Positions 20,009 through 22,096 of a DNA stretch of 64,000 bases are shown here, one piece after another. The position numbers were made by a program, and so were the translations under genes. The notes beneath the pieces were generated by a model, which searched no databases, had not been told where the DNA came from, and saw only the letters and a program-made list of their open reading frames with translations. The number at the start of each line of letters is the position of its first letter. Positions within the stretch are counted from its first letter, which is position 1. The DNA is from an uncultured virus (IMG/VR IMGVR_UViG_3300032138_000963) (lineage: Duplodnaviria > Heunggongvirae > Uroviricota > Caudoviricetes), in IMG/VR virus record IMGVR_UViG_3300032138_000963. One strand, given 5' to 3'.

Positions 20009-22096
20009 TCAGACCTTCATCTTCAAACGCTTGGCCTCCTTGTTGGCCACACGCAGACATGCAGCACGTTCATCCCTGACGCGCTTGCTCGTCTCATATT
20101 TGCCCGAGGCCTTCATCTTGGCGAGGTGATTGAAGACTGCGTACAGATTCTTCTTGGTCGGCTTGTCGCAGTACGTGTCCCAGAGCTTCTGGCAGCGATC
20201 GGTGAGGATCTTCCAGCCAGGCTTCGTTTTCCGGGCTACCTTCTTCTTGGCCTTCTTCGGATTCGTGGCAGCTACCGTGTGCGACTTCGGCTTGCTGCGC
20301 CGTGCTGACAGCGGGAGGGGCGGCGGAGTCTTGCGCTTCCTCTTCGCGGTGGTCTTCGCCTTCTTCGCCTTCTTCGCCTTGGCCCGCTTCACCGCATCGC
20401 CGAGATACGGATTCGGATACGGCCCATACATCTTCTCCATCAGCTTCGGAGAGTCACGGCGAGCTGACGCCAGGGAGATCGCCACTGCCTGGCGTTGTGG
20501 GCGACCGGCGGAGACCTCGGTCGAGATGTTCTTGCTGATGATCGTTCGCGCACTCCGCTCGGATGCTCCGCGAGGAATCTTCTTGAGCGGATTCTCCTTC
20601 GGGTGCTCCCCAGGATTGAACCTGCGGCGCGGCATCCTCCAGGCGCCCTTGCTGTCCTGGTAGTAGCCGACGTTCTTCACAGCGCCCCACGCCTGCTTGC
20701 GCGCGCTCTCCTTCGACGATCCACGAATGCGAGCGCTGATGTAGACCGACTCCCACATGTTCACAGCTCGAGGGTACGAGCCAAGCGTTCCCAAGGCGGG
20801 CATTTCGGCGACGAGGGCAAGCGACCTCTCGTCCACTTTTACCGCCGACACTGGATTTGGCTTGCGCTTCTTTGCCGAGCGCTGCTTCTTCCCGGCGTAT
20901 TCCATGAAGCGCTGCAGATCCGCCGGGTCCATGTTCCGGACTTCAGCGTAGAGAATCAGCTGACGCTCGGCGTCGTCGAGCTGCTTCTTTGCTCGAGCGA
21001 TAGAGCCTGGAGAGCTACCCGGAGACGTCACGAGGTTCAGGTGAGCCTTGCGCTTGCGACGATAGTTGGAGGCGTACTGAGCGAGGGTCTTGTCCGTCAC
21101 GGACCCCGATGACACGGGGTTAGACCTTCGGCGGCTACGCTTTTCGGAGACAACTGCCGTCCGGAGCTGACGCAGATCCCTGACCATTCGACCGCTCGTT
21201 TCAGGATGACGTTCAGCTCGCTTGATCAGACTCGTCAGCGCCTTGTGCTCCTGCTCGAGGCCAGTCATGGTCATCCCGGGAAGCTCAGACTCATAATGCC
21301 CAGGGTTGATTTTCGCCAGCTTGCTACGCAGCGATGACCCGGACACCTCGACCCCCACCTTGCTCGCCCTCGAGGCTTTTCCTGCCGCACCCTTCGCTCG
21401 CTTCTGGCGACCCTTTTTGATCTCCGTCTCCAGGGTGAATGCTCGAGCAGGATTCTTCTTGCGCTTCTTTTTCTTCTTGGTCGCTATAGCTATTCCAGCT
21501 CCTGCAACCGCGCCAATGGGGCCGAGGGCAAGTGCCCCGATTCCGCCGCCGATACCTGCGCGCCCGACATCCGTCTTCGCCGCCTTCTTGACCTTGCGCC
21601 CAGCCTTCTTGGCCTTGGCCTTGATGGTCGACTTCTTCTTGGAGGCCTTCTTCTTGGGGGTCTTCTTTTTTGGGTTCGGTAGACGGCTCATGAGTTCTTC
21701 TCGCTGACGAGGGTCTTTGCGACCCATGGCATGGCGGCGGCGCTGTTCAGTATCGGCGACCTCGCGTCGTCGCCTGGTCTCGGTCTGGAACTCATCGATC
21801 GAAGCGAACAGTCCTTTGTCCGATTCATCAGCACCAAATCCCGCGAGTATGTATTCTGCAGCAAGACCCTCGTCGTCCGGGTTCAGGCGGAAGGATCCGC
21901 GCGATAGCTGCCAGCGGCCACCCAGCTTTTGGCTGACGTATCCGCGCTCTTTGAGATACTGGAGACCCCATCGGACCCTCGTCTCATCGAGCCCGGTCTC
22001 CTTCACGATTTTACGCTCGGTCAGCCCGCGCCTGGCAGGCTTGAGGGCCCTGACGATTTTTCGCCCGGCCTGAGGAGTCGTAACCCTCCCCTCCAC
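20009..22096 (-). CDS. Basic multi-module protein (winged HTH-like, glycine zipper, ChaB-like, others) with 10 Asn-Pro motifs
   Basis: N-terminal wHTH pattern; GIGGGIGALALGPIGAVAGAG; ARKQAWGAVKNVGY...GAW. Confidence 0.85.
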   Translation of the reverse strand: MEGRVTTPQAGRKIVRALKPARRGLTERKIVKETGLDETRVRWGLQYLKERGYVSQKLGGRWQLSRGSFRLNPDDEGLAAEYILAGFGADESDKGLFASIDEFQTETRRRREVADTEQRRRHAMGRKDPRQREELMSRLPNPKKKTPKKKASKKKSTIKAKAKKAGRKVKKAAKTDVGRAGIGGGIGALALGPIGAVAGAGIAIATKKKKKRKKNPARAFTLETEIKKGRQKRAKGAAGKASRASKVGVEVSGSSLRSKLAKINPGHYESELPGMTMTGLEQEHKALTSLIKRAERHPETSGRMVRDLRQLRTAVVSEKRSRRRSNPVSSGSVTDKTLAQYASNYRRKRKAHLNLVTSPGSSPGSIARAKKQLDDAERQLILYAEVRNMDPADLQRFMEYAGKKQRSAKKRKPNPVSAVKVDERSLALVAEMPALGTLGSYPRAVNMWESVYISARIRGSSKESARKQAWGAVKNVGYYQDSKGAWRMPRRRFNPGEHPKENPLKKIPRGASERSARTIISKNISTEVSAGRPQRQAVAISLASARRDSPKLMEKMYGPYPNPYLGDAVKRAKAKKAKKAKTTAKRKRKTPPPLPLSARRSKPKSHTVAATNPKKAKKKVARKTKPGWKILTDRCQKLWDTYCDKPTKKNLYAVFNHLAKMKASGKYETSKRVRDERAACLRVANKEAKRLKMKV

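Follow-up and report, generated by a model that had tools for sequence, protein, structure and literature searches.

Asn-Pro seams in a multi-module protein of an uncultured large phage, with a mini-protein module that begins at one of them

The uncultured-virus record IMGVR_UViG_3300032138_000963 (IMG/VR; Caudoviricetes) was analysed over a stretch of 64,000 nucleotides (nt), referred to here as the window, in which an open reading frame (ORF) on the minus strand at 20009–22096 encodes P0001, a protein of 695 amino acids (aa) with a GTG start (translated from 20012–22096). P0001, carried on a 168-kb contig, is a beads-on-a-string protein from an uncultured large phage, in which short modules are separated by Asn-Pro pairs (NP, hereafter seams). 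One module belongs to a family of phage mini-proteins and, to judge from the aligned sequences, begins at the seam Pro exactly where the free-standing copies begin after their Met. Cleavage of the seams by a protease, between the Asn and the Pro, is given a chance of about 45%.

Ten NP pairs were found in P0001 compared with 1.04 expected from its composition, and 10 of its 19 Asn residues have Pro next. The seams take the form (R/A/P)-(K/R)-x-Asn-Pro in a protein of which Lys and Arg make up 25% of residues, and they delimit 11 segments which are short and mostly helical, at least three of these having independent family or fold matches. The seams are, in order from the N-terminus:

21878–21883, minus strand: seam N72-P73, ends the putative winged-helix module
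21671–21676, minus strand: seam N141-P142, before the glycine-zipper module
21449–21454, minus strand: seam N215-P216, after the glycine-zipper module
21302–21307, minus strand: seam N264-P265, between helical modules
21116–21121, minus strand: seam N326-P327, between helical modules
20852–20857, minus strand: seam N414-P415, NP in 10/10 aligned relatives
20612–20617, minus strand: seam N494-P495, NP from the alignment of relatives
20588–20593, minus strand: seam N502-P503, P503 aligning with residue 2 of free-standing MPL... proteins
20408–20413, minus strand: seam N562-P563, the exact point at which extra modules of relatives are inserted
20258–20263, minus strand: seam N612-P613, NP from the alignment of relatives

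The modules between them are:

21884–22096, minus strand: N-terminal putative winged-helix module, residues 1–71 (Pfam, AlphaFold, Foldseek)
21455–21673, minus strand: Lys-rich and glycine-zipper module, residues 142–214, better conserved in the family than any other module
20858–21451, minus strand: three helical modules, residues 216–263, 265–325 and 327–413 (NP cuts, AlphaFold)
20618–20854, minus strand: ChaB-like module, residues 415–493 (ChaB homology at about 431–487)
20594–20614, minus strand: spacer PGEHPKE of 7 residues between N494-P495 and N502-P503
20414–20590, minus strand: mini-protein module, residues 503–561 (PLKKIPRG...YGPYP; phrog_2423 / DUF6496)
20012–20260, minus strand: C-terminal three-helix module (RCQKLWDxYC...CLRVANKEAKRLK), common to a 526-aa neighbour and most relatives

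The initial annotation, made from the letters and reading frames of the window, had held that the segment following Glu-Asn in this ORF is a small phage protein type and that cutting at the seam would recreate the N-terminus of its free-standing form. The strings on which this was based are present, ...HPKEN being followed by PLKKIPRGASERSARTIISKNISTEVSAGRPQRQAVAISLASARR from residue 503 (20588–20590), right after E501-N502, and the assignment was confirmed by profile searches. In PHROGs, residues 518–549 are matched by phrog_2423, a family of 52 positions without assigned function (E 9.8e-8, 32.9 bits). An exhaustive HMMER search of residues 495–565 against 1.84 billion representatives returned 70 proteins at E<=1e-3, the majority being 43–150 aa long with an MPL start. 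With tblastn, residues 503–562 matched 94 GenBank phage records at E<=10. Those examined were from RSB1, phiEap-2, a P22-like phage and two others that are uncultured like it, BcepB1A (gp26) and an Acinetobacter phage (a protease); the matching stretch is in each case a gene of 44–60 aa or else the N-terminal part of a fusion with a prohead protease, and MPL opens the annotated product. The tblastn match in Tunturiibacter phage Tunturi_3 was discarded, as its annotated ORF, once translated, lacks the motif.

In alignments A1, A3 and A5, P503-L504 line up with P2-L3 of the free-standing proteins, and five positions (P1, L2, N21, Q34 and A37) are invariant in all 31 rows of A3. The family signature consists of the P-L start, S/T-x-N-I and G-K/R-P-Q-x-Q-A-V-A-I-A. 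The P0001 copy, which is internal to the protein (residues 503–561 of 695), has two small insertions of 3 and 4 residues, as has a subgroup of the free-standing proteins. Pfam DUF6496 (gathering score 24 bits) gave no match to P0001 at E<=0.1, and membership of P0001 in DUF6496 is thus by transitive homology only, through free-standing homologues which pass the cut-off (30.8 bits for P0047, 26.9 bits for P0062).

The AlphaFold model of the mini-protein has a 10-residue N-terminal coil followed by three helices (predicted local distance difference test score, pLDDT, of 84.6). In the ESM Atlas, residues 503–561 neighbour clusters of viral proteins of 43–66 aa, with structural alignments beginning at residue 503. 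A search of BFVD with the model retrieved family members, including fusions to NUDIX and XkdF (DUF2213 prohead-protease) domains. Foldseek of the model against the PDB gave nothing below E 2.7, PDB sequence searches with two modules and the relative P0093 gave no meaningful match, a word-index search with the 59-aa module gave no candidates, and a literature search found no paper on DUF6496.

The start of the free-standing form was examined in IMG/VR, where a scan with A3 gave 460 confirmed stretches, of which the best 80 loci were inspected. A start codon stands directly before Pro-Leu in all 80 (ATG in 78, GTG in 2), with no alternative upstream in-frame start in 49/80 and a Shine-Dalgarno-like motif within 18 nt in 67/80. 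The ORFs are of 40–87 aa in 76 of these loci and longer in the other four, where the mini-domain lies at the N-terminus; Asn-Pro was found at the mini-protein start in 0/80. A scripted census of domain copies in 87 proteins (P0001–P0090 without the near-duplicates P0030–P0032) yielded 79 copies in 78 proteins, distributed as follows:

35 embedded copies, all preceded by Asn
33 proteins starting M/V-P, with Pro at residue 2
7 internal M/V-P, probable mis-called starts
2 in which the script picked an upstream P and M-P-L or V-P-L was seen by eye (P0055, P0090)
2 copies without Pro-Leu (P0058, P0082)

Both contexts occur together in a protein of 182 aa that is not of the core family and holds two copies, the first starting MPLL and the second ...SE-NPLL. 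The minimal form of the seamed arrangement is the 138-aa relative P0035, which reads MKRIN-NP-mini-protein-NP-C-terminal module. Head-protease fusions also start MPL, namely BcepB1A gp26 and an Acinetobacter phage prohead protease. BcepB1A gp26 (L003, 2495–4231), annotated as a 'head maturation protease', has the mini-domain at residues 1–45, NUDIX at 46–118 and DUF2213 at 167–337; its record includes a nested scaffold gene and leaves the mini-domain without annotation.

Relatives of the whole protein were identified by word-index search, which returned 28 proteins (E 2.5e-294 to 3.9e-6; 79–31% identity), all metagenomic and on contigs of up to 221 kb. A JGI metagenome scan gave a single 2.7-kb locus. 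Whole P0001 had no match by tblastn in GenBank phages, and the alignment of the whole family retrieved no locus from IMG/VR. The sole IMG/VR locus for the C-terminal module (L090) was rejected as a family member, its 106-aa ORF sharing only the short CEKLWDTYCK string.

Across 32 family sequences NP occurs 305 times against 35.3 expected, and with P0001 left out 295 times against 33.8, an 8.7-fold enrichment which is the highest of all 400 dipeptides (the runner-up, YC, is at 6.0-fold). Lys or Arg occupies position -2 at 166 of 304 sites. That the pattern is a product of chance, composition or a mis-called frame is highly improbable: only the Lys-rich low complexity speaks for an artefact, and such a reading is refuted by the rank of NP among the dipeptides, by the conservation of frame and seams in the 28 relatives and by profile matches to two independent families inside the frame. 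A repeat or recombination signal at the DNA level was ruled out as the source, since the codons vary at the 22 NP sites of five genes of the window (AAT 14 and AAC 8; CCG 9, CCA 8, CCT 3 and CCC 2), so that the motif is selected at the level of protein.

The seams are also kept in place. In alignment A2 (24 sequences, P0001 with 23 relatives) NP is retained in 21/22 rows at site 215, 18/19 at 264, 16/17 at 326, 10/10 at 414, 19/21 at 502 and 15/18 at 562. When the proteins were cut at NP in silico and the pieces clustered, recurring modules of fixed length appeared, one always of 49 aa and the mini-protein piece mostly of 60 aa, and these are present, absent or re-ordered across relatives as whole NP-bounded units; P0009–P0015, for instance, lack both the ChaB-like piece and the spacer of 8 residues that goes with it. 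Among BLAST match ends internal to both partners (n=3497), 41.9% have an NP no more than 3 aa away, compared with 8.0% for random positions, a figure to which masking of Lys-rich linkers may contribute. Double seams 1–6 residues apart (NPSNP, NPSTNP, NPGAMMNP) were seen in P0003, P0008, P0020, P0027 and P0036, and at residues 257–261 of a 433-aa protein in the window (23682–24983). In P0020 and P0036 the doublet occupies the place of a whole module of P0005, which suggests that double seams may be scars of module loss.

An AlphaFold model built on A2 shows well-folded beads (pLDDT 75), and its predicted TM score (pTM) of 0.27 indicates that there is no global fold. Seven of the ten seams are in, or no more than 3 residues from, segments with pLDDT<50, such zones accounting for about 28% of the chain. 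A helix begins at or just after the seam Pro in only two of ten cases, and helix N-capping was discarded as a general explanation of the seams. Ribosome skipping of the 2A type, which has a known consensus and depends on eukaryotic ribosomes, was likewise discarded, with NPG at only two of ten seams and NPGP at none.

The other modules are less readily placed. The initial annotation likened the block MWESVY...KGAW, which lies at residues 447–486, to ChaB. Taken alone the block falls short, as Pfam ChaB (PF06150) scores residues 443–487 at 16.7 bits (E 0.011) against a gathering cut-off of 27. The likeness does hold by way of relatives: among 32 scanned, P0039 (36.5 bits) and P0043 (37.8 bits) exceed the cut-off, P0037 comes near (24.7) and P0008 is weak (17.6), and BLASTP aligns the P0001 block to the P0039 module at E 1e-4 and to that of P0043 at E 0.009. 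The block is best regarded as a real but remote ChaB relative, as remotely supported by these alignments. In P0039 the ChaB module begins directly after NP. A winged-helix block was also proposed for the same ORF; the N-terminal module is the only bead recognised by Foldseek, whose best matches are IclR regulators and Z-alpha winged helices at probability 1.0, but with E of 0.08–0.5, and HTH_IclR of Pfam reaches 17 bits against a cut-off of 22. The glycine zipper which had also been noted is there, as a glycine-rich segment at residues ~178–205 that forms the most conserved part of the family. The C-terminal module gave no usable match in the ESM Atlas.

If the seams are cut, a dedicated viral or host protease, encoded outside the window, would most likely cleave P0001 between Asn and Pro and free a set of small basic proteins, each with an N-terminal Pro. 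Removal of the initiator Met before Pro is an established specificity of methionine aminopeptidase, and a mini-protein released at its seam would therefore have the same mature end as the free-standing form. The C-terminal module shared with relatives and the Gly-zipper module would serve in targeting, to the capsid or a membrane, and the freed modules might associate with DNA or lie inside the virion, an analogy being drawn here to the internal proteins of phage heads, which are made as precursors that head proteases trim. The strongest argument for cutting is one of position, the mini-protein being N-terminal in every ordinary phage examined and preceded by Asn when internal. In this respect the expectation that a cut would recreate the free-standing end agrees with what was found at the 80 loci and in the census. 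Cleavage at Asn-Pro is moreover on record for FlhB/YscU, reovirus mu1 and RsgI (PMC3207474, PMC10328401).

Several observations weigh against cutting. No candidate for a cognate protease was found in the 64-kb window, the only peptidase detected there being an M23 (peptidoglycan-type) domain at 25614–26627, and the NP-rich genes adjoin replication and lysis genes with no recognised structural genes. Most proteases refuse Pro at P1'. The seams fall within linkers that are predicted to be floppy, and Thr-His follows none of them. A short basic leader followed by NP at the protein N-terminus occurs in 13/44 proteins, no more than the overall NP density predicts. Exceptions to the seam in A2 include SP (3) and KP (2), so that Asn is not absolutely required. 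The ChaB homology of P0001 (E431-M-P-A-L-G-T-L onward) begins 17 residues past N414-P415, so the N-terminal boundary of this block is not aligned with its seam. In tblastn searches of GenBank phages no free-standing homologue was found for modules 327–413 and 265–325 or for the PCIGLHFHG module of the 526-aa neighbour, nor for the ChaB module of P0039, and the ChaB-like module of P0001 gave only matches to unrelated genes at E>=1. The equivalence of Met-Pro and Asn-Pro rests on a single module family. The known Asn-Pro cleavages, as far as the accessible text of the sources goes, are single self-cuts inside folded domains (PMC3207474, PMC10328401).

The idea that standalone homologues start at the Pro accordingly held for the mini-protein and not, among GenBank phages, for four other modules, and the polyprotein model put forward by the initial annotation gained from the boundaries of the mini-protein, which line up with the seam, while cleavage itself stays inferred. 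On the sequence comparisons made here the polyprotein reading of P0001 is strengthened, though unproven.

Two HExxH motifs were noted in NP-bounded modules, HEMQH in P0093 (129–133), a protein with the family C-terminal module, and HERKH in P0010 (755–759). These are possible zinc peptidases, but their number is close to chance, about 0.7 such motifs being expected in this set on a rough estimate, and neither has a family match in Pfam, NCBIfam or the PDB.

The main alternative, to which we would give somewhat less than an even chance, is that the chain stays whole and works as a single long protein of many domains, flexible and associated with DNA or a membrane, in which Basic-x-Asn-Pro is a linker, insulator or docking motif; NP might also mark points of module-exchange recombination, with the Pro of the mini-protein merely part of its fold. 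An intact chain would fit the lack of a protease candidate in the window and of free-standing counterparts for the other modules in GenBank phages, as well as the occasional Ser or Lys in place of Asn, and strongly basic segments (25% Lys and Arg) could act jointly on DNA. The position of the seams in low-confidence linkers is typical of inter-domain spacers, yet a plain linker leaves unexplained why Asn is kept in 35/35 embedded copies and about 90% of aligned seams while nearby linker residues vary. Nor are the pieces of 3–8 residues between some seams domains, and helix capping, with Pro-start helices at 2/10 seams, is no general reason for the motif. It is also unexplained by an intact chain why a domain that is N-terminal in 80/80 loci and in the protease fusions should be buried here.

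Self-cutting, in which the Asn side chain would attack its own carbonyl (a succinimide route) as in asparagine peptide lyases, is considered unlikely. It would account both for the failure to recognise a protease and for how strictly Asn and Pro are kept, and might be slow in a stored particle or sped by adjacent basic residues or capsid conditions. Uncatalysed scission of Asn-Pro in peptides is very slow, however, and the Pro-Thr-His context is found at 0/10 seams. The bond is indeed the one cut in FlhB/YscU, reovirus mu1 and RsgI, but the known cases, in the available text of the sources, need a specific folded turn at one site (PMC3207474, PMC10328401), whereas P0001 has ten sites in varied contexts predicted to be disordered.

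Returning to cutting by a protease, a broader form of that proposal may be advanced tentatively, at odds a little short of even. Basic-x-Asn-Pro would be the cut-site code of many uncultured viruses, with cleavage before the Pro turning one gene into a cocktail of mini-proteins by means of an as yet undescribed Asn-Pro-specific protease or of Asn-lyase chemistry acting in trans; the modules would carry a free N-terminal Pro, and DUF6496 would need its Pro-Leu end in the head.

The gene neighbourhood bears on what the mini-protein may do. With a crude ORF caller, the closest ORF on the same strand was picked to either side of each of the 80 IMG/VR loci, provided that it had >=90 aa and was no more than 600 nt away, and the resulting 136 ORFs (68 upstream, 68 downstream) were scanned against PHROGs:

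Head and packaging: 20 upstream (10 major head, 7 portal, 2 head morphogenesis, 1 scaffold), 12 downstream
Connector: 0 upstream, 3 downstream
Tail: 0 upstream, 5 downstream
Other named functions: 11 upstream (4 endolysin, 4 DNA metabolism, 2 peptidase-like, 1 DarB-like), 4 downstream
Function-unassigned PHROG families only: 8 upstream, 14 downstream
No PHROG match: 29 upstream, 30 downstream

A functional category was assigned to 55 of the 136 neighbours, and because 40 of these 55 belong to virion assembly (head and packaging, connector or tail), we infer a head-associated role for the mini-protein. The uncharacterised family DUF6496 / phrog_2423 is now linked to head assembly through its gene neighbourhood and its prohead-protease fusions.

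Among the ORFs of the window, the basic and NP-rich character is limited to P0001 and three neighbours on the same strand:

22098–23678, minus strand: 526-aa basic protein, 3 NP against 0.58 expected, with a C-terminal module as in P0001
23682–24983, minus strand: 433-aa basic protein starting MARK-NP, 4 NP against 0.69 expected
18671–19654, minus strand: 327-aa Lys-rich protein, 4 NP against 0.28 expected

Between the basic 695-aa and 327-aa genes lies an extremely acidic 101-aa ORF with D/E runs (19688–19993, minus strand), whose sole match is weak and of low complexity; its product could neutralise or chaperone its basic neighbours. Downstream of the NP-rich cluster, a 255-aa ORF (17900–18667, minus strand) has one Lys-flanked NP and two hydrophobic Gly/Ala-rich stretches at its C-terminus, and profile searches gave it no family match. 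A 768-aa protein (43593–45899, minus strand) contains 3 NP pairs against 0.73 expected and an AAA ATPase domain at residues 453–581, preceded by about 440 N-terminal residues without assignment.

The remaining gene content looks like that of part of a large phage. Genes of replication or repair type (single-stranded DNA-binding protein, thymidylate synthase, DEDDh exonuclease, RecT, helicase and primase) and cell-wall enzymes (GH25, amidase and M23) were identified, together with a superoxide dismutase, GrpE and a Tad6-like protein. The Fe/Mn superoxide dismutase (113.8 and 65.8 bits; 11529–12173, minus strand) and the GrpE homologue (118.6 bits; 39727–40368, minus strand) are unusual auxiliary genes. 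A 252-aa ORF (40365–41123, minus strand) matches Pfam Tad6, a Type I Thoeris inhibitor, over residues 157–232 (92.9 bits) and is likely an anti-defence gene. In a 418-aa ORF (25–1281, plus strand) one 14-residue string occurs twice, at residues 180 and 266, which indicates a roughly 86-residue internal repeat.

The usual view of tailed phages is that each small protein has a gene of its own. A polyprotein strategy that needs only a two-residue cut mark would, if true, be a new phage gene organisation, comparable to that of RNA viruses, in which genes are added by splicing modules at NP seams. Annotation would change, one ORF standing for many products, and a protease or a chemistry of unusual specificity for the bond between Asn and Pro would be indicated. 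The mini-protein module offers a concrete test substrate, and the N-termini of its hundreds of free-standing relatives can be predicted. Should the seams prove uncut, these modular proteins would still be built by a rule, the strict Asn-Pro joint, that lacks an explanation.

Compared with known families, the mini-protein module shares its sequence family and a predicted coil-then-helices architecture with phrog_2423 / DUF6496 proteins such as Ralstonia phage RSB1 ORF47, Enterobacter phage phiEap-2 ALA45591 and the N-terminus of Burkholderia phage BcepB1A gp26. Elsewhere, however, these are free-standing products of 40–87 aa or the N-termini of NUDIX/prohead-protease fusions, whereas the P0001 copy is internal with Asn before it. 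Residues ~431–487 align to the ChaB profile (PF06150; NCBIfam NF007136) and to the above-threshold ChaB modules of relatives; unlike ChaB proper, the P0001 copy is sub-threshold, flanked by seams and extended by 17 residues at its N-terminus.

Basic internal head or core proteins made from trimmed precursors are known as the internal proteins of T4, the inner-body proteins of phiKZ and the core proteins of adenovirus. P0001 may be likened to them, by analogy, in that small basic proteins would come from a precursor and the mini-protein gene occurs in head-assembly modules and fused to prohead proteases. The known cut sites of these systems differ from Asn-Pro.

With FlhB/YscU (MEROPS N6), reovirus mu1 (N7) and RsgI, P0001 has in common Asn-Pro as a candidate scissile bond with a strictly conserved Asn. 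In the accessible accounts of those proteins a single cut is made in cis within a folded domain, whereas P0001 has 10 sites in predicted floppy linkers (PMC3207474, PMC10328401), and comparison with the asparagine peptide lyase families (N6, N7 and RsgI-type) showed no NPTH and no sequence or fold match. A literature search for a phage Asn-Pro polyprotein, with subscription journals outside its coverage, found nothing relevant, and the Asn-Pro seam rule is unpublished as far as that search reaches.

Polyvalent proteins of phages and conjugative elements combine 2–15 unrelated domains per polypeptide, for which release of units by proteolysis has been proposed, DarA and DdrB of P1 being processed and packed in the head, as set out in the available portion of the source (Iyer et al., 2017, PMC5512222). 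They carry enzyme domains of large size, as a rule with a zincin-like peptidase embedded among them, whereas P0001 has non-enzymatic mini-domains of 30–90 aa and no peptidase module, and none of the polyvalent repertoire (zincin-like peptidase, methylase-helicase, ArdC-N and others) was found in it by Pfam, PHROG or NCBIfam. The joints of P0001 are conserved Asn-Pro pairs, and the accessible text on polyvalent proteins describes neither an Asn-Pro joint nor ChaB (PMC5512222). P0001 nevertheless resembles them in placing many unrelated, swappable domains in one phage polypeptide, its domain number lying within the 2–15 range described, and polyvalent proteins are the closest described class to P0001.

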